Below, in pieces: positions 526 to 34,423 of a stretch of 54,218 nucleotides of DNA; position 1 is the stretch's first letter; each line of letters begins with the position of its first letter. The DNA is from a virus (Duplodnaviria > Caudoviricetes): IMG/VR virus record IMGVR_UViG_3300037478_000320, positions 1-54,218 of that record. One strand, written 5' to 3'. The notes below the pieces were generated by a model. It had not been told where the DNA came from. It made no database searches and saw only the letters and a program-made list of their open reading frames with translations. Made by a program: the position numbers and the translations under genes.

Positions 526-1869
526 TTAGACCGAGACCAGTCCGGTGATCTTGCTGACCTTGTGAATGGCGCCGGCTCGAGTCGCCTCCCACGAGATATC
601 AGGGAGCAGTCGAGCCGACTTGTTCGCCGTCGAAACGTCGGCGACTTTGGGGACGGTGATAACGGGCTCGGGGTCTGCGGCGAGAATTCCCTGGGCGATG
701 GCACGGTCGAGCGAGCCGCGCACTTCGTTCTCGATGGTGGCGACGCCGGGATCGGTGTACGGGATCTTTTTGGCGAACAGGATCGCAGCGAAGACCGAAG
801 TGCCCATGTCGTCTTCGATCCAGTCGTCTCCGGTGGTGACGTCGATGTAATCGCCGTCGCCGCGCTTGCCCTCCCAGGTGAACGAGCGGCCAACCTCGCT
901 CTTGAGGTAGTTGGCGTCCCGGTTCTGAATGTTGGTGCGCTGGGTCGTCGAGAGCTTCGGCGCCGCCACCCCAGCGAGCTCCTGGTAAGCCCAGGTGATA
1001 GTGCCGGGCAGGGCGGGTAGGCACTTGCCGAGGACACGAGCGCCGAGCATGTCGGCCGGGCTCGGGTGGTAGTAGCCCGAGCTTCGCTTGTAGCTGTTGG
1101 CCTGAATGTCCTCGAGGGCGTCGGTGGCCGAACCTACGACAACGGTAGCGGCGCTCGAGTCATTGACATCGGGGATGTAAACCTTCGTCTCGGTCTCACA
1201 CCACGCGGCGGCGGCGGCGACGTAAGCGATCGAGTTGTAGAGCGTGTAAAGCCCGTACCAACCGGAGTCAGCTTCGTTGATTGCGGCCAAGTCGGTGGCG
1301 AGGGTGGGGGTCGGCTCGGCGTGGTCCTCGACGATCGAGAGGTCAGCGAGGTTAAGAACCTCGAGAGAGAACCACTCGCCGGCGGCGTCCGCGGTGACGT
1401 CGAACGTTCCGTCAGCGCCGGTATCGTCGACCGTGTAGTTCGCCCCGACGACAGCTTCAAGCGCGGTCTCGAAGGAAGCCGCAATAGTCGCGACCGTGTC
1501 AGCGCCGTCCGCGGTGACTTCAACCAGGGTCGAGGTCACGCCTTCGCCCTCGACCTGGATCTGATAGACGTGATCTTCGGTAGCGTGGAGGACTTCGAGC
1601 GCGAAGTTCTTGGTAGGCTTGCCTCCGGAGCGGCCGATAGCGATCTTCGCGGGGCGCGGAGACTGCGCGAACATGCCCGACGCGGCGAGGTACTCGGGGC
1701 TGGTGGTGACGGAGAAGTCTGACGCGACCTCCGTCAGATTGCTGTAGAACCGGATCCGCTCCGCGAAGCTGGCGTTGCAGCTCAGAATCATCGGAACGTT
1801 CTGAACGGTCTTATCCACGGCGCCGCCCGTGGTGGAGATCTCAATGTCAACATGATCAGTCAGCGCCAT
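526..1869 (-). CDS. Tail sheath protein (DUF3383-like)
   Basis: 447 aa; F.QSPRP..I.IGR, YID...G.DW, KIPYTD.G, AGAIH.V motifs typical of this myophage sheath family. Confidence 0.9.
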   Translation of the reverse strand: MALTDHVDIEISTTGGAVDKTVQNVPMILSCNASFAERIRFYSNLTEVASDFSVTTSPEYLAASGMFAQSPRPAKIAIGRSGGKPTKNFALEVLHATEDHVYQIQVEGEGVTSTLVEVTADGADTVATIAASFETALEAVVGANYTVDDTGADGTFDVTADAAGEWFSLEVLNLADLSIVEDHAEPTPTLATDLAAINEADSGWYGLYTLYNSIAYVAAAAAWCETETKVYIPDVNDSSAATVVVGSATDALEDIQANSYKRSSGYYHPSPADMLGARVLGKCLPALPGTITWAYQELAGVAAPKLSTTQRTNIQNRDANYLKSEVGRSFTWEGKRGDGDYIDVTTGDDWIEDDMGTSVFAAILFAKKIPYTDPGVATIENEVRGSLDRAIAQGILAADPEPVITVPKVADVSTANKSARLLPDISWEATRAGAIHKVSKITGLVSV

Positions 1870-1913
1870 TGGTTACCCTTTCGGTACGATACTTGCATGG
1901 TGGGGTGTCAGAG

Positions 1914-3203
1914 TTAAGCCAGGGGATTGGAGGGCACGTAAATCGACGCCCCGTCATTCTCTATCTCCACGAATTCAATAAGGGAACCCGGCTCTGACAC
2001 GTCAGAGAACATCGATAGCGTCACGTCGACCTGAGCCCGGGGCTCAAAGACGGAGCCCATGACTCCGCCGATATGCTTGACGGAGCCCGACCGGAGATAA
2101 CCGACGCCGGCGGCCTGGAACGCGGCCTGTTGCGTCGGCAGAGCGGCGAGGGCGAGCGTCTTGTCAAGCCTGGCGGCGGAGTTCAGGGCGCCTGTGGCGG
2201 CGCCGTCGAAGCACTGAATCGAGAGCACGATCTCTCGCGGTCCGCGTGAATGGAACGTGACGTCATCGCCGTCTTCGACCGTGTCTGACCAGTCGGGTCC
2301 GTTGCGGTTGACGGCGACGATCTTCAGGGTGGCGTGCGTGCCTTCCGGTCGGGGAGAATTCTGACCGGACCAGATGACCTTGGCTTCGGCGAGTCCCGTG
2401 CCACGAACTACCCAGGCATGAATCGCGTTCTCAATCGTTGTCCAGAAGGGGTGCGACGTCTCGTCATCAAACGATGCATTTAGGATCTCGTCGATCTGGG
2501 CGTCCGTCAGCGCCGGTTTGCCCTGACCCCATGCTGCGAAGTAGCTACACCGATAACCAACAGCTACGCTGGCCGATGTATGAGCGCCGATAGACAGCCC
2601 GCCTCCGGTGACAATCTCCATCGGTGTCCACGGTGCGACCCCGCCCAACACCGGCCCGCCGTCCACTTTGGCGCGGATGGAATAGAGACCAGCGTTGGGG
2701 TCGATCGTGGTAATGACGCTGGCCCACTGCTCCGCGATGGCTGCTATGGCAGGCAAGGTAAACGACTGCACTCCCACCGCGTCTGCGTCGTCAGTGAGGA
2801 TTCCTATTGTGGCCAGGTTGGACAGCTCGCGACACGGTGTGTACCAGCGACCGCCGCCGCTTGCCCTCTTGCCGAAGAACGGGGCGTTATTGGTAAACGC
2901 CGCCGGCATCATGACCCGAGCCCACACCGAGACCGGCCCGGTCACGACATCGCCGAGATCGGTGTCTGGACAGAGCAGGTGCGCGGATCCTCCGGGGAAT
3001 TCGACCGCCTTCCGTCCGCCGTCACCATCGACGCCAAACGTGATTCCTGCCGTTCCCTCAGGGGTAAAGTGCAGTCCTCCGCCCGTCCAGTCCTCCGCCT
3101 CAGAAGAGCCTTCGTCGTCCTGTAGCGCAAGGCCGACGCTCGGAACGTCGGCGCTATAGCTGTCGGCCCAGTCGGTCGCGCTCTCGGGGCAGCGAGTTTT
3201 CAC
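1914..3203 (-). CDS. Tail terminator/neck protein with N-terminal LamG/ConA-like domain
   Basis: C-terminal ~180 aa (VIWSGQNSPRP...FEPRAQVDV) resembles tail-completion proteins found before the sheath; N-terminal ~245 aa has a LamG-like pattern (AVEF.G, SVWARV, LSIGA, ALTDAQI). Confidence 0.65.
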   Translation of the reverse strand: MKTRCPESATDWADSYSADVPSVGLALQDDEGSSEAEDWTGGGLHFTPEGTAGITFGVDGDGGRKAVEFPGGSAHLLCPDTDLGDVVTGPVSVWARVMMPAAFTNNAPFFGKRASGGGRWYTPCRELSNLATIGILTDDADAVGVQSFTLPAIAAIAEQWASVITTIDPNAGLYSIRAKVDGGPVLGGVAPWTPMEIVTGGGLSIGAHTSASVAVGYRCSYFAAWGQGKPALTDAQIDEILNASFDDETSHPFWTTIENAIHAWVVRGTGLAEAKVIWSGQNSPRPEGTHATLKIVAVNRNGPDWSDTVEDGDDVTFHSRGPREIVLSIQCFDGAATGALNSAARLDKTLALAALPTQQAAFQAAGVGYLRSGSVKHIGGVMGSVFEPRAQVDVTLSMFSDVSEPGSLIEFVEIENDGASIYVPSNPLA

Positions 3204-13136: not shown

Positions 13137-15134
13137 CTAAAGCTTAGTCCGCTGCAGGGCGCGCTCACCGCGCAAGTAAGACAGCCCCATCGAAAGGCTG
13201 TCGACCTGGTCATCGTGCGAGCCATTGGGGAAGATCGCGGTCTCGTGGATGAAGTCATCGAGCCAGGGCGCGGCCATCGGCAACAAAACGTTCCCGCCCT
13301 CGACGATACCCACCACGGAGAACGCGCGGGACTCCTTCGAGACCCCCTTCGGATCCCAGTCAATAATCCCCGACAGGTCGACCCGGAGCTCCACGATCAC
13401 GTCGGAGCCGGCTGCCTTGTCCTCGATGACTAGAGTCGACTTCGGATACTTCTCGCGAAGCTTCCGAATCGTTTTCTTCATGTCGAGGATGTCCATCGGC
13501 TTCGTGATGTTGTCGAGGATGTAGCGGTTCGGCCCGCACTCCCCAATGACAAGCATTGAAGTCCTCGATCCTGTGACTGTCTTTTTTGCGGAGCAGTCGA
13601 CGGGGATTATGATCCGGCGGAACGTTGGTAGCGGCTTTCCGGGGTCGTAGTAACGCCACCAAGATTTCTTGAACATCCCACCTTCCGCCGGCGCGGGTCG
13701 CTGCTGATGCTGACCTGCGAAGTAGTAGGATCCTTTCGCCTTCTCCTCGGTGAGCGTCTTGCCTCCCAAGCGGGCAGGGTGAAGGAGCTCCCCGGGCTCG
13801 CGGTGATCGTACTTGCCGAGGATGCTCGACTCGTTCCGGCAGTCCTCGCACTTACAAGCCAGCTTGTTCGAGGGCTGACCGAGCGACGGCTCGAACTCCG
13901 TCGGCAGACGAACGTGTCTCCACGTGCTCTGCGCCAGGACGTGACCGGCCCAGTCCTCTTCGTGGAGTCGCTGCATGATTCCGATGCGGAGACAGCGCTT
14001 CCTCGAGTTCACGCGGTTCTCGATCGCGGTGTCCCACTTATCGTTGACACCGGTTCGGATCAGCTCGCTATTGGCTTCCTTGGCGTCGAGGGGGTCGTCG
14101 ATGATGATGATGTCCGAGCCCTCGCCGGTGATCTTCTCGTTCGTGGTGGCGCTGTGGCGCTCGCCTCCGACTGAGTTCTGATAGAGCTCGATGGCGTCGA
14201 TGTCCGGGCGGATCTTCCACGCCGGATCGAAAGCTTGCTGGTACCACTCCGAAGAGATCAGGTCGCGACTCGCGCGGGCGGCCTTAGTTCTGACCTTGCC
14301 GTTACCTGAGAGGTATCGGATTTTGATGCTCGGATCGTGGAGCCAGAGCCACGCCGGGAAGAAAACGCCGCAAATCTCGGTTTTCAGGGACCGCGGAGGG
14401 ACGTTGATCAGAAGATTCTTGTCTTCGAGCTCGTATGTCTCTTCGTTCTCAGGATCCCGGAGCGCTTTGTCTCTGACGTCGAGAAGTTTGAACGCGAGGA
14501 ACTGGAGATGGTCGCAGATCGTTTTTAGATGCCAGTTCCAAGACAGCGGCTCACCGGGGTGGATTGTCTCCCATGCCTGGCGCACGAACTCGTGGAGATT
14601 CTTCTTGGCCTCCGGTCCGCGTCGCTGTGCCTTGGCAAACTTGATTCTCTTGAGCCGGTCGGCGAGTTTCCTGCGCTTCGCCGCTTGGATTCTCTCGAGT
14701 CGGGCCTCGAGGTCTTCGGGGCGTTTGGTCAGAACTCTTGCCGCGGTCCGGTCTCGCTCTGACGACTCCTCGTTCTCGGGCTTGGTGTCGCGGTCGACGA
14801 CGGCTTTGATTTTGCCGTGACACTCGGTCCCGTAGCGCTGGATCCGTGAATCTGACGGCTCGACGTAGCAAGCCGAGCAGTGGGGATCGTCGCGAAACCT
14901 AGATCCACACTTCGGACACTGCTCTGACGGCTCGTGTATGACGCTTTTCTCTGGTTCTGGATCTGATCTAACTTGTGACACGGATTTCATAGACGGATCA
15001 AATCGATCGTCGGCGATGACCGCGCGCCTGGGGGCGCCACCCCCCACCCCCGGGTCCGCCGCCGCGATCGGGGGGGAGGGGCAGATCGGGCACGAGCCGA
15101 CCTTTCTCACTAGCAGCGCGTGTGTGCAGCCCAC
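13137..15134 (-). CDS. terL: Terminase large subunit
   Basis: Walker A variant LLINVPPRSLKT, Walker B IIIIDDP, IMQRLHE.D, QQ.P, and nuclease motifs IEDKA.G and HDDQVD; true start may be downstream of 15134. Confidence 0.92.
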   Translation of the reverse strand: MGCTHALLVRKVGSCPICPSPPIAAADPGVGGGAPRRAVIADDRFDPSMKSVSQVRSDPEPEKSVIHEPSEQCPKCGSRFRDDPHCSACYVEPSDSRIQRYGTECHGKIKAVVDRDTKPENEESSERDRTAARVLTKRPEDLEARLERIQAAKRRKLADRLKRIKFAKAQRRGPEAKKNLHEFVRQAWETIHPGEPLSWNWHLKTICDHLQFLAFKLLDVRDKALRDPENEETYELEDKNLLINVPPRSLKTEICGVFFPAWLWLHDPSIKIRYLSGNGKVRTKAARASRDLISSEWYQQAFDPAWKIRPDIDAIELYQNSVGGERHSATTNEKITGEGSDIIIIDDPLDAKEANSELIRTGVNDKWDTAIENRVNSRKRCLRIGIMQRLHEEDWAGHVLAQSTWRHVRLPTEFEPSLGQPSNKLACKCEDCRNESSILGKYDHREPGELLHPARLGGKTLTEEKAKGSYYFAGQHQQRPAPAEGGMFKKSWWRYYDPGKPLPTFRRIIIPVDCSAKKTVTGSRTSMLVIGECGPNRYILDNITKPMDILDMKKTIRKLREKYPKSTLVIEDKAAGSDVIVELRVDLSGIIDWDPKGVSKESRAFSVVGIVEGGNVLLPMAAPWLDDFIHETAIFPNGSHDDQVDSLSMGLSYLRGERALQRTKL

Positions 15135-15790
15135 TATGGCCTTGCTTCCTTCGCTCGTCGCCTCGCCATGGACACTGTGCAGCCAAGCTCGTCGGCGATG
15201 GTCTTCCAGCTACATCCCTGCTGACGCATGTCGCGCACGTCATCGGCGCTTGGCCCCTTGCCCTTAGGCCTCCCTAGCGTCTTTCCTTTGGCCCTTGCGC
15301 GCTCGAGGCCCAACATGGTGCGCTCCCTGATCAGATCGCGCTCAAACTCCGCCACAGCCGCTAGCACGCCCAGGAGAAGCCTCGACATGGCATCGCCACC
15401 GGGCTTGACGTCGAGCCCTTGAGTGACAGCGACGAAGCGAACGCCGGCGCTGGCGAGAGACTCGATGTTCGCCAGGACGTCGAGCGAGCTCCGGCCGAAG
15501 CGATCGAGCTTCCATACCGCCACAGCGTCGATTTCACCCTTCCTGGCGGCCTCGAGGACGCGCTGTAGCCCCGGCCGTCCGTTCCAGGCGCCACTAGCGG
15601 TCTCAGTCACGTCGAGCGCTACGGAGCCGCCCTGTCGCTCTGCCCATCCCTCGAGCTCATTTCGTGCGAGCTCAGGATCCTGGTCGAGGGTCGACACGCG
15701 GTGGTAAATCCCGACGCGAAGCCCTGTCGAAATCGGGGCGTCAGAGACGCTAAAGCTAAGCGTGCGAGAGGTGGGGATTGAATTGCGCAT
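15134..15790 (-). CDS. Serine recombinase (resolvase/invertase) with C-terminal HTH
   Basis: Y.RVST..Q, SG....RPGL, KLDRFGRS, AEFER.LIRERT..GL..AR..G..LGRP. Confidence 0.93.
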   Translation of the reverse strand: MRNSIPTSRTLSFSVSDAPISTGLRVGIYHRVSTLDQDPELARNELEGWAERQGGSVALDVTETASGAWNGRPGLQRVLEAARKGEIDAVAVWKLDRFGRSSLDVLANIESLASAGVRFVAVTQGLDVKPGGDAMSRLLLGVLAAVAEFERDLIRERTMLGLERARAKGKTLGRPKGKGPSADDVRDMRQQGCSWKTIADELGCTVSMARRRAKEARP

Positions 15791-18713: not shown

Positions 18714-18844
18714 CGACCCCGGGACCGATTTTCTTCCGAATCGGATAAAACCGTCAGAAAACCCTTGCAATCGGCGTTAGGGGTGTCGTACGTTGCTTGA
18801 AACACCGCGTACCAAGTTCACCTGACACCGGAGAAGTTTCTGAC

Positions 18845-19471
18845 ATGTTCGTCACCACCCGAGAGATCCTGTATTCGGCCTTGAGAGCCGTTCAACCCTT
18901 CATGTCCAAGGATGAGACCCGAGAGCACATGAACGGCGTTCGCATCGAGTTCGCCGACGGCGAGTGCCACCTGATCGCCACGGACGGAGTCGCCCTGGCG
19001 CATGTCAAGCTCGTGCGACCTGTTGGTGAGCGCGCCCCTAGCAATCTAGGGTTCTTCCTGACATCCGACCGGGTCAAAGAGGCGATCGCTCATGTCCGAC
19101 CGAAGGCGAAGGAGAGAGATCAACGCGTCGAGGTTCGAATCGCCGAGGGTATGGCGGCCGTTTTCCAACTCAGGGACGCCAACGGCAGTACCGACGGTCT
19201 GACATTCCGTCTCACGAAGACATCCGAGTTCCCTCCCTGGCGCCAGGTCACACCGCCCCGTGAGCACGTCAAGAAACCTACGGCCTTCGTCGGTATCGGG
19301 GGCTGGCAGCTAGAGCGCGCGGGGAAAGCGTGCAAGGCGTTCATGCCCACCGGCGTCGATCGGGGCTTCGTCGTTCGCACGCCAGAGTCGGAGCTCCACC
19401 CCGTGCGCCTCGACACCGACCACCCCGACCGCGGTTCCCTAACCGTCGTCATCATGCCGATGAGGGTCTGA
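18845..19471 (+). CDS. Beta sliding clamp-like protein (shortened DnaN fold)
   Basis: S.DETR...NGV, ATDG..LA, FP.W..V and terminal IMPMR motifs. Confidence 0.8.
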   Translation: MFVTTREILYSALRAVQPFMSKDETREHMNGVRIEFADGECHLIATDGVALAHVKLVRPVGERAPSNLGFFLTSDRVKEAIAHVRPKAKERDQRVEVRIAEGMAAVFQLRDANGSTDGLTFRLTKTSEFPPWRQVTPPREHVKKPTAFVGIGGWQLERAGKACKAFMPTGVDRGFVVRTPESELHPVRLDTDHPDRGSLTVVIMPMRV

Positions 19472-20064
19472 TGCGTCACCAGCACGACACCATCCCCGGC
19501 GACGTCTCCCTGTGCCGGTGCGGGCAGGGTAGGGCACACCTTGCGTGTGACTGCTTCGGTGTGGCCCTCGAGCACAGGCAGGAGCTCTACGCCCGAGCCC
19601 TGCAGCTCACCCGCAACCGCGCCGTCGCGGAGGACGTGCTACAGGAAACCCTCACCCGGGCGTTCGGCGCCTGGGAGCGCTTCGACGGGCGCAACGTCAG
19701 GGCATGGCTTCACCGGATTCTGACGAACTCCTTTATCACGCACTGGCGGTCGGAGTCCCGAGGGCGGATCGCGCGGGATCGTCTCCGGCGTGAGCTCGAT
19801 GAGGCGGTCGGGCCGGATGTCCCCGAGGGACTGTCAGACGAAGTTCAGTCCGCGCTCTTGTCGCTGCCGATGTGCTACTGGTCGGTGATCGTCCTGGCCG
19901 ACATGAAGGGCGAGAGCTACCGGCGTATTGCTGAGATGATCGGCGCCCCGATCGGGACCGTGATGTCTCGCTTGTTCCGCGGACGGCGGCTACTGCGCTC
20001 GGCTTTGAGCGAGTACGCGAGGGCTGAGTACGGAATTTCTGACGATGAGCGGAATAGTCTCTGA
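19471..20064 (+). CDS. ECF sigma-70 factor (SigR/SigH-like)
   Basis: Region 2 AEDVLQET..RA...RAWL.RILTN; region 4 SY..IAE..G.PIGTVMSRL.RGRR.L; ATG overlaps the clamp stop. Confidence 0.9.
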   Translation: MRHQHDTIPGDVSLCRCGQGRAHLACDCFGVALEHRQELYARALQLTRNRAVAEDVLQETLTRAFGAWERFDGRNVRAWLHRILTNSFITHWRSESRGRIARDRLRRELDEAVGPDVPEGLSDEVQSALLSLPMCYWSVIVLADMKGESYRRIAEMIGAPIGTVMSRLFRGRRLLRSALSEYARAEYGISDDERNSL

Positions 20065-20112: not shown

Positions 20113-20766
20113 ATGGATACTGTCAGGTACAAGTACACACTCGAAGGCACTTCTCCTCTCCTCATGCACGCGAACAACGTCGATGCCCGAGACGCTCTCG
20201 AAAAGGAGCGAGCGACGGCGACCAAAGGCGGCAAGCGTGGCGACGACCGGAGCCCCGCCCACACGTGGAAAAGCTACCTCTACCACGACGGCGAAAGCCT
20301 GATCGTCCCTCTCGAGAACATGTTGGCGATGCTCATCGCCGCCGGCAAGAAGGTCAAGGTGCAGGGCAAAGAGACCCTGAAGACCTACACCACCCTGATC
20401 GACTTCGAGCAACAGGACGTGGCGTTGATGGTCGATGGAAAGCCGGTCAAGATGAGCGCCATCGCAGCCATCAAGGGCGACTTCGACGCCCAGCGCGCCG
20501 CCGCCGCCAAGCTCGGGTTCCGCCTCGACGTCAGACCGGTCCGCGTCGGTCAGAGTTCCCACATCCGCGTCCGACCGACGTTCGACCGGTGGTCTCTCGA
20601 GGGAACCTTCGCCATCGACAGCACCGACATCGACGTGCTGACCCGCGACCGCCTCGAGCTGCTCTTCGCCATCGCCGGTAAGCGGTGCGGCCTTCTCGAC
20701 TGGCGACCGAACGCACCGACCCCGGGCCGCTTCGGTCGGTTCGCTCCCACCATCGAGGCGATCTGA
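20113..20766 (+). CDS. Stand-alone RAMP/Cas7-like RNA-binding protein (Vipr-like effector)
   Basis: RAMP hallmarks: first strand LEGTSPLLMH, IVP...L...L helix start, thumb-like hairpin VRPVRVGQSSHIRVRP, C-terminal Gly-rich loop GLLDWRP....GRFGRF; adjacent repeat array; no other cas genes in the locus. Confidence 0.75.
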   Translation: MDTVRYKYTLEGTSPLLMHANNVDARDALEKERATATKGGKRGDDRSPAHTWKSYLYHDGESLIVPLENMLAMLIAAGKKVKVQGKETLKTYTTLIDFEQQDVALMVDGKPVKMSAIAAIKGDFDAQRAAAAKLGFRLDVRPVRVGQSSHIRVRPTFDRWSLEGTFAIDSTDIDVLTRDRLELLFAIAGKRCGLLDWRPNAPTPGRFGRFAPTIEAI

Positions 20767-21260
20767 TGGACGCGAAAGACATTCGCTACCAGCGCGACGC
20801 CGCCTTCATTGGCCTACGCCCGCTCCTCGAGAGCAAGAAGCGCGGCGACAGGATCACCGCCGCCGAGATCCGAGACGCGACCGGCTTCGACGACTGGAAA
20901 GGGCTGCGCTCGAGGATCCGGCAGTACTTCGAGGCGAAGGGACTTTTCCTTCGCGCCGTCCCGAACGACGGCTACCGGATCATCGCCGGCAACGAACACG
21001 CCGACGAGTCGGCCCGACACCAGCGCACGGCTCTGAAGCGAGAGATCAAGTCCCTGAACGTCATCTCATCGGCTCCGGTCGAGGAGTTGTCGGATGATGA
21101 GGTCCGCCGTGTGCGTTTTCAGCGCGATCGGTCGGTCCGTCGCGTGGAGCTCGCCGCGAGCCACGACCAGGACAACTATCACAAGCTCGGGATCAAGCCC
21201 CTTCGGCAGAGGATCCCGGCGCTTCGCCTCAAGAGCGGAGACGAGCAAGAGCAGAGTTAG
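20766..21260 (+). CDS. Winged-helix-like accessory protein of the RAMP locus (164 aa)
   Basis: TGATG coupling to the RAMP gene; GD.IT..EI...R....L.AVPNDGYRI wHTH-like pattern plus basic helical C-terminus. Confidence 0.65.
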   Translation: MDAKDIRYQRDAAFIGLRPLLESKKRGDRITAAEIRDATGFDDWKGLRSRIRQYFEAKGLFLRAVPNDGYRIIAGNEHADESARHQRTALKREIKSLNVISSAPVEELSDDEVRRVRFQRDRSVRRVELAASHDQDNYHKLGIKPLRQRIPALRLKSGDEQEQS

Positions 21261-21270
21261 ATTTCCGTCC

Positions 21271-21948
21271 GGCATGGCATGGTTCGGTGCGCTTGGGTTA
21301 GGCTCGGCAGGGCGCGGCTTGGTACGGACGGGCACGGTAAGGCACGGCTTGGCGAGCAGCCCTCGGGGAGATCACGTTCAAACCGAGGGCACTAAGTATG
21401 GCTGGTCTAGGTCTGTTGTGGCATGGCGAGGCGCGGATCGGTCGGGCTTGTTCTGGCGGGTTGTGACAGGGTAAGCAGCCCTCGGGGAGATCATGCTCAA
21501 ACCGAGGGCACCAATTCAAGGTCAGTTCAGGCTAGGTCCGGCATGGCCGGGTCCGGCACGGTGTTGCGGGGCGGGGTTTGGCTAGGCTAGTTCTGGAAGG
21601 CGAGCAGCCCTCGGGGAGATCACGTTCAAACCGAGGGCACCAAGTGTGGTCCGGTTGGTTAGGTCGGGTTTGGTAGGACGTGGTATTGCTGGCTATGGTG
21701 TGGCAAGGTATGGTGAGCAGCCCTCGGGGAGATCACGTTCAATCCGAGGGCACCAAACAGGGTGTGGTGTTGTCTGACGGGGTTGGGCTAGGCGAGGCTC
21801 GGTGAGTTTGGGCCAGGCGCGGCAAGCTGCGGTTTGGCGAGCAGTCCTCGGGGAGATCACGTTCAAACCGAGGGCACCAACATGGCAGGTTGTGGCGCGG
21901 CGGGGTCGGCTCGGGTGTGGTTAGGTTCGGTCAGACAGGGGACGGCTC
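21271..21948 (+). ncRNA. Array of six candidate guide RNAs made of GGY-NN pentamer tracts
   Basis: Tracts at 21271-21355, 21400-21474, 21520-21603, 21648-21716, 21761-21840 and 21884-21948; 13-17 pentamers each; positions 1-3 mostly GGC/GGT, positions 4-5 variable. Confidence 0.8.
21356..21877 (+). repeat. Five 37-nt hairpin direct repeats GCAGCCCTCGGGGAGATCACGTTCAAACCGAGGGCAC
   Basis: Copies at 21356, 21475, 21604, 21717 and 21841 (periods 119, 129, 113, 124); 8-bp stem GCCCTCGG/CCGAGGGC. Confidence 0.95.
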
Positions 21949-22131
21949 GCCGTCGGATTGCAAACGCTTTCCGATCGCGGGCCGTTTTCTGTCTGACGGC
22001 TGAGGGGCGTTTGGGGACTCCCGACCGCCCCCGTTCGCCCCAGTGTCTCAAAAGTGGGCACCCTTGAATTTCACTTACCGTTGAAATTGCTGATATGGGA
22101 TCCGGACCGGGTTTTGCTTTATTCCCGCCTC

Positions 22132-22887
22132 ATGGGATACAAGCCTAAAACTCCGACCAATGCCGATCTGAGCAACCTGATCCACCGACAGGCTGCCGAC
22201 CAGTCAGAAGTCAACGAGAGCGTCGCAAACAAACTCCTGGCCATCGACGCCGCCGTCGGGGAGATCGCCAAGCTCGTCAGAGGCGTGGTCGCCGACGTGG
22301 ACCGGAACACCGAGGGCCTCGCTCGAGTCGAGGAAGCCATCAGCGTAAGAGCGAACGGACACGACCCGCGGCCCGTCATGGTCAAAACGGCCCCTGACAT
22401 CGAGAAGCTACTAGCCCCAGGGTCCATGTATTTGGCTGACATCGTCAGCGAGGCCGATGAACCGGCCGAGGTGGTTCAGAGAAAGCTGGACGAGCTGATC
22501 GCGGCCGACAAGGTTTGGAAGACGGATGACGTCTACCCTACTTACTCCCTGAGGAACGAGAACTATGTCGGAGACGACACGGCTGTTCCTGTCTTGATGG
22601 ACGCGATCCGCCGTCTGATCTCTGTCGAGCCAACCAACCAAGGCGAGCTCGAGGAAGCTACCGGGGCCAGGACACAACGCATTAGCGACTGCCTGACTCG
22701 GATGCAAAAGACCGGGGAGATCCTGAAACTAGAGAATCGGAATGGATCTCCCTATTTCCGACCAGAGGATCAGAGCCCGAAGGCCAGAAAAGCCAGGAAA
22801 GCAGCGTACCACCGAAGGGTAGCTAAGAAGAAACGAGATAAGGAAAAGCGAGATAAGGAGAAGTCGGGGTTCAGGACGCCTTCGTGA
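22132..22887 (+). CDS. Putative DNA-binding protein: coiled coil, two wHTH-like domains, basic tail
   Basis: LADIV.......VQRKLDELI...KV and NQGELEEATG.....ISDCLTRM...GEI patterns. Confidence 0.6.
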   Translation: MGYKPKTPTNADLSNLIHRQAADQSEVNESVANKLLAIDAAVGEIAKLVRGVVADVDRNTEGLARVEEAISVRANGHDPRPVMVKTAPDIEKLLAPGSMYLADIVSEADEPAEVVQRKLDELIAADKVWKTDDVYPTYSLRNENYVGDDTAVPVLMDAIRRLISVEPTNQGELEEATGARTQRISDCLTRMQKTGEILKLENRNGSPYFRPEDQSPKARKARKAAYHRRVAKKKRDKEKRDKEKSGFRTPS

Positions 22888-32960: not shown

Positions 32961-33347
32961 TTAGCCTTCGCCGCAACCCGGACAACCGTTGTAGGTCTGG
33001 GCGCACTCTGAGCATAGTCGCTCGCCACAGGGACACTCTAAAACGTCATCCTCGGTCTCGCAGACGAAGCATCGCTGTTCGTCCCAGACCCAGCCGTCGA
33101 CGGTCTCGTATAGTGATCCGTCTTCGAGTCGCCGATCGATCTCCCCGTTCAGCCACGCATGAACAACGCACCCTATCTCCTGGTCGGCTTTGTGTTTAGA
33201 GAACTCGATCTTCATTCGCCGAAGCAGGTCCTCTCGGAAATCCGCAGGTGTAGCCTCTGTGAATGTCACGGTCATCTCTCGACCGCTCAATGAGACGCTT
33301 GAGCACCCAGGCCAAGCGAGCATCGTTACTTTGACTGTTAATTTCAT
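32961..33347 (-). CDS. Hypothetical protein with C-terminal Cys-rich zinc finger
   Basis: CFVC...CPCG..LC..C.....CPGC; ATGA coupling to the integrase. Confidence 0.6.
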   Translation of the reverse strand: MKLTVKVTMLAWPGCSSVSLSGREMTVTFTEATPADFREDLLRRMKIEFSKHKADQEIGCVVHAWLNGEIDRRLEDGSLYETVDGWVWDEQRCFVCETEDDVLECPCGERLCSECAQTYNGCPGCGEG

Positions 33348-34423
33348 CCCGTCTTTCCTCCCTGTAGCAGTTTCAGACCCTCGACGACTTCGCCAGCTTC
33401 CTCCGCGCCGGGCTCGGCGTAGTGTCGACGCATGACCTCGGGGTCATTACCGAGCTGGTCGGCGATCAGCTGAGCCGCGATCCCTCGCTTCGACAGCAAG
33501 GTCGCGATCAGACCACGCATGGAGTGAGCCGTGGCGTTCGGGATCTCTGCTTTCTTGCAGACCCGATGCACTTGGTCGCGGACCCATTGCCGGGTGTGGG
33601 GGCGATCCTTCCGACCACGGAAAATCGGATCCCCGGGCTCGCGACCGTCGACCAGCTTCAAGAGCATGTCCGACAGGAGCTCGGGGACCTCTAGGGTCAA
33701 ATCCTTCTCGTTCTTTCGATCCTCGACGTGGATGACGTCGCCGGGTCGCTCGTCTTCGTCGAGGTTCCCGCAGACCAGACCGACGATCTCGGACGCTCGG
33801 AGTCCCAGGAGCACGGCGACGATCCCGGCGACGGCGCCGTAGTCATTGGATTCGGACATCTCGAGCGCGGCGCCGTACCACTTCCGGGCATCCTTGATCC
33901 GCATCTTGTACCCCGACTTGCCCAGGCTCTTGCCCCGGGGGCGGAGCTTGCCGACCCCCTTAACCTTCGTCGCCGGGTGCTCCTTGAGGTGACCGCCGTC
34001 GACGCACCATTGGAGAAACGTCTTCGTCTCCTTGAGCGCGGCGCGGTGGCTGTCGGGGGCCAGGGGCTCGCCGGTCGTCTTGCTCGGCCGCGTCCTCAGG
34101 TCGTCATAGAGCGCCTGACAGCGCGCCGGTGACAGGGCGGCCAGTGGTAGGGGCTTGGGAAAGAATCTCGCCAGGGCCCACTCCGTGCGCTCGATGGAAC
34201 GCTCTTTGAGCCCACGTTCCCGGAGCTCGCGGATGTAGCGCTTGGTGAGGGAGTCGGTGGTGCGATCGAGCTGCGCGATCCCGGCTCGGAGGATCTCTAC
34301 GTAGCGCTCGGCTTCCGCTTCGCTGCGAAACGCTCGAGAGACTTTCGAGCCATCTCCTGTAATTTCGATGACTCGGTATCGGTCTCGTCCGGCTTCAAAG
34401 TATGGTCCGAGGACTCGTTCCAT
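33344..34423 (-). CDS. int: Tyrosine integrase
   Basis: GLRASE (R), K, HSMR (HxxR), LGN, HY catalytic set. Confidence 0.9.
   Translation of the reverse strand: MERVLGPYFEAGRDRYRVIEITGDGSKVSRAFRSEAEAERYVEILRAGIAQLDRTTDSLTKRYIRELRERGLKERSIERTEWALARFFPKPLPLAALSPARCQALYDDLRTRPSKTTGEPLAPDSHRAALKETKTFLQWCVDGGHLKEHPATKVKGVGKLRPRGKSLGKSGYKMRIKDARKWYGAALEMSESNDYGAVAGIVAVLLGLRASEIVGLVCGNLDEDERPGDVIHVEDRKNEKDLTLEVPELLSDMLLKLVDGREPGDPIFRGRKDRPHTRQWVRDQVHRVCKKAEIPNATAHSMRGLIATLLSKRGIAAQLIADQLGNDPEVMRRHYAEPGAEEAGEVVEGLKLLQGGKTG

Follow-up and report, generated by a model that had tools for sequence, protein, structure and literature searches.

A probable VIPR locus with an array of GGY+NN guide tracts in an uncultured phage of high G+C content

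An uncultured phage genome of 54,218 bp, analysed here over the whole length of its virus record (the window), carries at 21271–21948 on the + strand an array of five-base repeats which poses the question of what reads these units, and which of their bases are read. A sequence-only reading of the array had proposed that the first three bases of each unit are not read, while the variable dinucleotide (NN) that follows is read against codon positions 1 and 2 of target genes, the third base of each target codon being skipped. To answer this question, the array, the two genes directly upstream of it and their relatives in other phages were analysed. The features of the locus are listed below under the names used for the VIPR family, to which, for the reasons given later, it very probably belongs.

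20113..20766, + strand: vipr, 217 aa, predicted stand-alone Cas7-like RAMP protein, directly upstream of vap and the array
20763..21260, + strand: vap, accessory gene, 165 aa, with a predicted winged-helix-like N-terminal part and long C-terminal helices
21271..21392, + strand: vrRNA 1, 16 variable GGYNN units, conserved last unit GGCGA and 37-nt tail; stem 21359–21366 / 21383–21390
21400..21511, + strand: vrRNA 2, 14 variable units (9 start with GG, 5 with GT or GA), last unit GGTAA and tail
21519..21640, + strand: vrRNA 3, 13 clean units from 21530, one 4-base unit, last unit GGCGA and tail
21646..21753, + strand: vrRNA 4, 11 clean units from 21657, last unit GGTGA and tail with one loop change
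21761..21877, + strand: vrRNA 5, 15 variable units, last unit GGCGA and tail with a C-to-T change in the stem, where a G-U pair is retained
21884..21948, + strand: tract 6, 13 units without the shared tail, the last units forming the 5' arm of the closing hairpin
21930..21997, + strand: closing hairpin, a near-perfect inverted repeat with 28-nt arms that starts within the last units of tract 6

Cut into five-base units, the array comprises 82 GGY+NN units in six tracts. Of the 82 units, 79 start with G, 67 have G at the second position and 79 have C or T at the third; GG is absent from 18. Positions 4 and 5 are occupied nearly evenly (A/C/G/T counts of 20/14/23/25 and 16/19/21/26, respectively). 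The variable parts of the tracts, 76–95 nt in length, are periodic in five bases, and the autocorrelation of G along the array has its maxima at lags 5, 10 and 15 (0.29, 0.26 and 0.30). Each of the six tracts contains 11–16 variable units in which GGY is conserved and NN is hypervariable; the NN pairs differ between all tracts, while GGY and the tail are kept, and the unit directly before every tail is GGYRA. The NN strings quoted in the sequence-only reading for tracts 1, 2, 5 and 6 agree with this division, and their translations, with one free base after each NN, are correct. No further GGY+NN tract was found on either strand in the rest of the 54-kb record. Rfam gave no match within 20500–22600, nor did a blastn search of the array against phage records.

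A conserved 37-nt tail follows five of the six tracts, in near-identical copies at 21356, 21475, 21604, 21717 and 21841, and folds into an 8-bp G+C-rich stem with a 16-nt loop. An invariable structured 3' tail is present in these five tracts; tract 6 runs instead into a different, long hairpin. Among the five near-identical tail copies no compensatory stem change was seen, the single C-to-T change keeping a G-U pair, and the tail motif had no match in viral contigs. The segment 21930–22060 has a folding energy of −81.6 kcal/mol (z = −7.25), and none of 200 shuffled sequences folded equally well. The hairpin at 21930–21997, which differs from the shared tail and is not followed by a terminator-type T-run, may serve vrRNA 6 as an alternative cap or mark the end of the transcript. 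The arrays of relatives carry other hairpin tails. In one clade, several compensatory changes separate the 14-bp hairpin stems in the tails of two related arrays, L175 (9760–9810) and L177 (3731–3790), which is evidence that the structure of the tail and not its sequence is conserved there.

The gene directly upstream of vap and the array identifies the locus. The protein encoded by 20113–20766 belongs to PHROG 4652 (E 4e-19); Pfam assigned it to no family, and its 112 homologues carried neither a domain nor an informative name. A profile built from 41 homologues matched one solved structure, PDB 36pp_D, the “SUSP1 Vipr protein”, with an E-value of 3.4e-26, residues 1–216 aligning with residues 1–190. 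In this alignment H19, R154 and D196-W197-R198 of the window protein correspond to H17, R138 and D177-W178-R179 of SUSP1 Vipr, which according to the published work hold the two guanines of the unit, G1 and G2 (10.64898/2026.04.26.720927). The GG-binding set is invariant or nearly so across the 41 homologues: H19 and R198 do not vary at all, and at least 90% of the homologues retain R154 and D196. The AlphaFold2 model (pLDDT 94.1) has a predicted Cas7-like fold, its best Foldseek matches being Csm3 and type VII Cas7 chains (E 3e-5 and weaker). Because of the profile match to SUSP1 Vipr and the conservation of the GG-binding residues, we consider the locus very probably to be a VIPR system, in which vipr and vap are followed by an array of five or six vrRNAs.

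Searches of genome and metagenome contigs with the single protein gave no close Vipr relatives. The relatives found in genomes are 33–43% identical and come from Planctomycetaceae, Vicinamibacterales, Burkholderiales and others; at least 285 relatives lie in metagenome contigs, and the nearest relative for which DNA is available is 46% identical. Identity to the studied (Felixounavirus) Vipr proteins is only 27–28%, so the published rule of target reading is carried over a long distance when it is applied to this locus.

VIPR (Viral Interference Programmable Repeat), a CRISPR-like DNA silencer, was first described in 2026, in three bioRxiv preprints for which peer review is pending (10.64898/2026.04.26.720920, 10.64898/2026.04.26.720927, 10.64898/2026.10.15.759431). 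As described there, each repeat is bound by one Vipr protomer with GGY hidden, and experiments showed that double-stranded DNA is bound by the NN pairs in such a way that one target base in three goes unread. In most cases this base is at the wobble position of a codon, and synonymous changes therefore allow no escape. The targets are rival phages and satellites and sometimes the vipr genes of rivals, and a vap gene usually lies directly after vipr (10.64898/2026.04.26.720920, 10.64898/2026.04.26.720927, 10.64898/2026.10.15.759431). One of the preprints defines the vrRNA as 9–16 YNNGG repeats followed by an invariable 3' tail (10.64898/2026.04.26.720920). Seven types of VIPR have been published, Escherichia phage SUSP1 and a Pseudomonas fulva prophage being exemplars of type II (10.64898/2026.04.26.720920).

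The window vap gene occupies the expected position, its ATG overlapping the stop codon of vipr (ATGA). An iterated jackhmmer search over the ORFs of the fetched loci recovered 60 homologous vap ORFs, nearly all of them just downstream of a vipr homologue and on the same strand. One of these is the gene at the equivalent position in the SUSP1-like Escherichia phage CL1, with which a direct BLASTP comparison gave an E-value of 0.01. The AlphaFold2 model of the vap product (pLDDT 89.6) gave weak Foldseek matches (E 0.03–0.3), all of them to winged-helix DNA-binding domains.

Six features that define a VIPR system are present at the locus: Vipr, the GG-binding residues, the vrRNA body, the tail, vap and the absence of self-targeting. 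The best match of the six guides within their own genome and the local set was 62–73%, with none at 80% or above; matches of at least 80% to the own genome are likewise reported as absent from the published systems (10.64898/2026.04.26.720920). The closest known systems are those with vipr-vap1 and a downstream vrRNA array, for which the type II exemplars SUSP1 and the Pseudomonas fulva prophage stand; with these the locus shares a lone Cas7-like Vipr with identical GG-binding residues and an order in which vipr is followed by a small winged-helix-like vap homologue and then by a GGY+NN array with constant 3' tails. As in published systems, it is phage-borne and has no guide matching its own genome. 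The CL1 locus has the same gene order as the window and carries GGT+NN tracts with tails. The window differs from the studied systems in the high G+C content of its DNA, where GGC and GGT are equally common, in having six tracts, none of them upstream of vipr, and in a looser position 2 of the unit (G in 67 of 82); its tail forms a simple hairpin (8-bp stem, 16-nt loop), whereas that of the SUSP1 clade is a pseudoknot.

A wider likeness is to the backbone of Class 1 CRISPR effectors, in which Cas7 or Csm3 lines the crRNA: the RAMP fold, the glycine-rich loop and the thumb are shared, and by analogy Vipr protomers would likewise polymerise on a guide RNA and break the guide–target duplex at a fixed period. 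In CRISPR this period is 6 nt, with five bases paired and one flipped out on both strands, whereas in VIPR three of every five guide bases are buried and one of every three target bases is skipped. No CRISPR repeats were found at the locus, and no Cas family was found by Pfam among the 29 ORFs scanned.

Independent evidence comes from the linkage of tract and gene in other phages. Viral contigs were scanned with the pattern (GGNNN)x10GG alone, which returned at least 134 loci, forming 125 non-overlapping groups. These were mostly degenerate GGC/GGT+NN tracts in intergenic DNA, and several shared a common upstream gene of PHROG 4652, the family of window ORF 20113–20766. Among the loci listed, degenerate GGYNN runs were present in 109 of the 125 groups, and a Vipr homologue was found in the retained flank of 62 of these 109 (42 of 54 where the flank was at least 2.5 kb, 20 of 55 where it was shorter). 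The tract lay on the vipr strand in all 62, and none of the 16 simple-repeat groups among the listed loci had a Vipr homologue. In the converse test, GGYNN runs were present in 36 of the 39 viral loci that had been retrieved through homology to Vipr. What is observed directly is the anatomy of the array, the protein family, its conserved RNA-binding residues and, across many phages, the linkage of gene and tract.

By analogy with the published experiments on SUSP1 and the Pseudomonas fulva prophage, which bear on expression, processing, the one-base skip and silencing, we propose a model for this locus whereby array and operon probably share a transcript from the + strand, which would be cut into RNAs of roughly 110–120 nt, each with 11–16 GGY+NN units and a constant hairpin tail. 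Vipr protomers would polymerise along the RNA, one per unit, burying GGY and presenting NN, and in the pattern NN-x-NN-x the NN pairs would attach to the double-stranded DNA of a rival element. A guide would in this way read 22–32 bases over 33–48 bp, usually at codon positions 1 and 2. Binding is expected to silence transcription, and the winged-helix vap protein may assist.

Natural targets were sought with 0–3 skipped bases after each NN, order-shuffled guides serving as the background. The six window guides showed no excess over shuffled guides in their own genome and the loci (0.39 Mb); 575 guides remained at the shuffle level in 0.96 Mb of related DNA, and so did 737 guides in a seed-and-extend search of 1.55 Mb that included 80 metagenome loci of relatives. 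The exact 12-unit one-skip motif of tract 2 had no match in viral contigs. No skip length, the predicted length of one included, thus rose above the shuffles in up to 1.55 Mb, an amount of DNA that is tiny beside that searched in the preprints. This blank result says little, since the DNA sets are so much smaller and the closest relative with DNA has a Vipr identity of 46%. With no natural target in these sets and no gap length that beats shuffled guides, support for the one-base skip at this locus comes from homology and the literature. On that footing the central proposals of the sequence-only reading are borne out: GGY unread and NN read with one target base skipped is the published rule of the family to which the locus would belong, and a skip that falls on the codon wobble base, leaving synonymous mutation no route of escape, has been established for that family by experiment.

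The composition of the NN pairs is less telling. A uniform model fits better than any codon-phase model, and among the latter, readings as codon positions 1-2 and 2-3 tie, while a skip of position 2 fits clearly worst. The claim that the NN pairs correspond to codon positions 1-2 is accordingly not singled out by composition, which speaks only against a skip at position 2.

The sequence-only reading had also found protein-like text in the decoded tracts, above all a resemblance of tract 2 to the helix-turn-helix of excisionases. Pfam found 20 HTH_17 hits in 15 of 50 related phage records and none in the window, which means that the phage has no HTH_17 excisionase-type gene of its own. A jackhmmer search from a single HTH_17 seed recruited no family; a profile (consensus KELLTIREAAELLGVSPRTV...) was therefore built directly from 19 of the Pfam hits, the weakest, which starts at model position 15, having been dropped. 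Against this profile tract 2, read forward, scored 18.3 bits, with units 6–14 falling on model positions 8–16 (EAAELLGVS); these units of vrRNA 2 spell D/E-A-S-R-F/L-L-G-V-S/R. Order-shuffled versions of the tract had a mean of 9.9 bits (sd 1.9), and 1 of 2000 reached the observed score, which lies 4.4 sd above that mean. The other 11 combinations of tract and orientation scored at the shuffle level. Protein-likeness therefore holds for tract 2 and for none of the other readings, and the passages offered for tracts 5 and 6 found no identifiable match in either the HTH_17 profile or a peptide scan. We tentatively suggest, from the decoded sequence, that guide 2 is directed against the helix-turn-helix start of an HTH_17-type excisionase or regulator gene of a rival prophage or satellite.

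That the locus is a VIPR system whose tract 2 resembles a protein by coincidence, any target being something other than an HTH or excisionase gene, is somewhat unlikely in our judgement. With 12 tract and strand readings, the frequency of 1/2000 becomes about 0.01, and the true significance is weaker still because the HTH_17 family was picked after tract 2 had been seen. The best DNA matches to units 6–14 in 0.96 Mb, 15/18 and 14/18, do fall in frame in two real HTH_17 genes (DAARLIGVS and DAAEFLGVT), but they are neither more numerous nor higher than those of shuffled orders (12 hits against 2–13; maximum 15 against 14–15), and an unbiased comparison of 6914 ORFs with the decoded peptides, scored by BLOSUM, gave nothing above shuffles. 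The excisionase likeness is thus left with modest statistical support from the profile and none from the DNA matches or the peptide scan. Against coincidence stands a score 4.4 sd over the shuffle mean that was obtained on the best-conserved segment of HTH_17 and in the correct order. Lysis-lysogeny regulators and an excision recombinase, moreover, are reported as frequent targets of published guides (10.64898/2026.04.26.720920, 10.64898/2026.10.15.759431), and the HTH reading of tract 2 is plausible as a member of these known target classes.

Two further readings concern the array as a whole. Its vrRNAs might be decaying or decoys, having ceased to guide the phage's own Vipr and, for example, redirecting that of a rival; solo and decoy vrRNAs are described, and satellite-borne solo vrRNAs are reported to redirect a rival's Vipr (10.64898/2026.10.15.759431). 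The loss of GG from 18 of 82 units, with only 9 of 14 units in tract 2 retaining it, the absence of the shared tail from tract 6 and the lack of a target in the 0.39, 0.96 and 1.55 Mb sets or in the exact scan for the tract 2 motif would all fit such a set. The vipr–vap operon immediately upstream on the same strand is nevertheless intact, the five tails are near-identical and internal degeneracy is, according to the methods of one preprint, frequent in working vrRNAs (10.64898/2026.04.26.720920), and we regard this possibility as very unlikely. Barely credible is the reading in which the tracts form a periodic binding platform or sponge RNA, with GGY bound every five bases by a ring or filament protein in the manner of a TRAP site, or a series of two-layer G-quadruplexes, the NN pairs being uninformative. 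The anatomy of the array, taken alone, had at first suggested it in the present analysis. GG every five bases could form G-quadruplexes, and the NN composition is near uniform. TRAP binds spaced RNA triplets around a protein ring, and the window array resembles its sites in the repetition of a short conserved triplet with a 2-nt variable spacer. The window, however, encodes no TRAP-like protein; the partner is a RAMP protein, and the spacers would carry the information. The NN pairs vary in every tract while GGY and the tail are kept, and in studied relatives changes of the NN pairs alone are reported to reprogramme the target (10.64898/2026.04.26.720920). The platform was dropped because the partner protein is a Vipr homologue, related to a solved guide-presenting RAMP whose GG-binding residues it keeps.

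Within the VIPR reading, the high-G+C branch might constitute a distinct variant of the system, marked by a Vipr identity of 27–28%, a plain hairpin tail, tolerance of T, A or C at position 2 of the unit and a long perfect terminal hairpin, and guide 2 might silence the HTH excisionase or regulator of a rival and so lock that rival in the chromosome. This combined proposal is speculative, and as a whole we think it unlikely to be right. If it held, a rival prophage or satellite would be immobilised in the chromosome, comparable to SUSP1, which is described as targeting a satellite recombinase; confirmation of an excisionase-type target for guide 2 would provide a second example of a rival immobilised by VIPR through the silencing of its excision machinery. 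The mechanism itself is already known, and the rule of two bases read and the wobble base skipped, deduced from raw sequence, matches that of the three 2026 preprints. What the locus adds is a complete 54-kb phage genome with six guides from the poorly sampled high-G+C branch of VIPR.

The genome encodes a portal protein, a terminase, a resolvase, a sigma factor, a methylase, a polymerase and an integrase. Its terminase is about 32% identical to those of Roseobacter, Myxococcus, Paracoccus and Rhizobium phages, and the terminase and Vipr relatives together pinpoint no host, the matches being distant and spread over many taxa. A serine resolvase (15134–15790) beside the terminase and a tyrosine integrase (33344–34423) are both present. 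Two ORFs just upstream of vipr, 18797–19471 and 19330–20064, share about 140 nt; RusA-like and sliding-clamp-like PHROG hits were obtained for one, and the other is an ECF-type sigma factor (Sigma70_r2, r4_2). In relatives, RusA or RuvC is found downstream of the array instead. The first gene past the array, 22132–22887 (251 aa), belongs to no family and gives a weak hint of a MarR-like winged helix (E 0.02); it had no homologue beside arrays among the at least 134 loci listed.

L211, which together with L210 stands nearest to the window among the relatives for which DNA is available (46% Vipr identity), has short vrRNAs with small hairpin tails at 1840–2040 and 2525–2680, that is, both between vipr and vap and after vap; L210 has no array within 1.2 kb downstream of vipr. 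The sequencing runs listed for the DNA of the window include no RNA run. In public DNA runs, short-read contigs agree with the window where they cover it and break repeatedly within the array (window 21380–21870), and metagenome arrays of this kind are therefore likely to be under-assembled. Two loci carry far longer uninterrupted GGC+NN tracts with no visible tails, one of 143 units and about 700 nt (L030, 1501–2215) and one of approximately 1.5 kb on the reverse strand (L084, about 1480–3040); these may correspond to the “staggered” arrays of the preprint.
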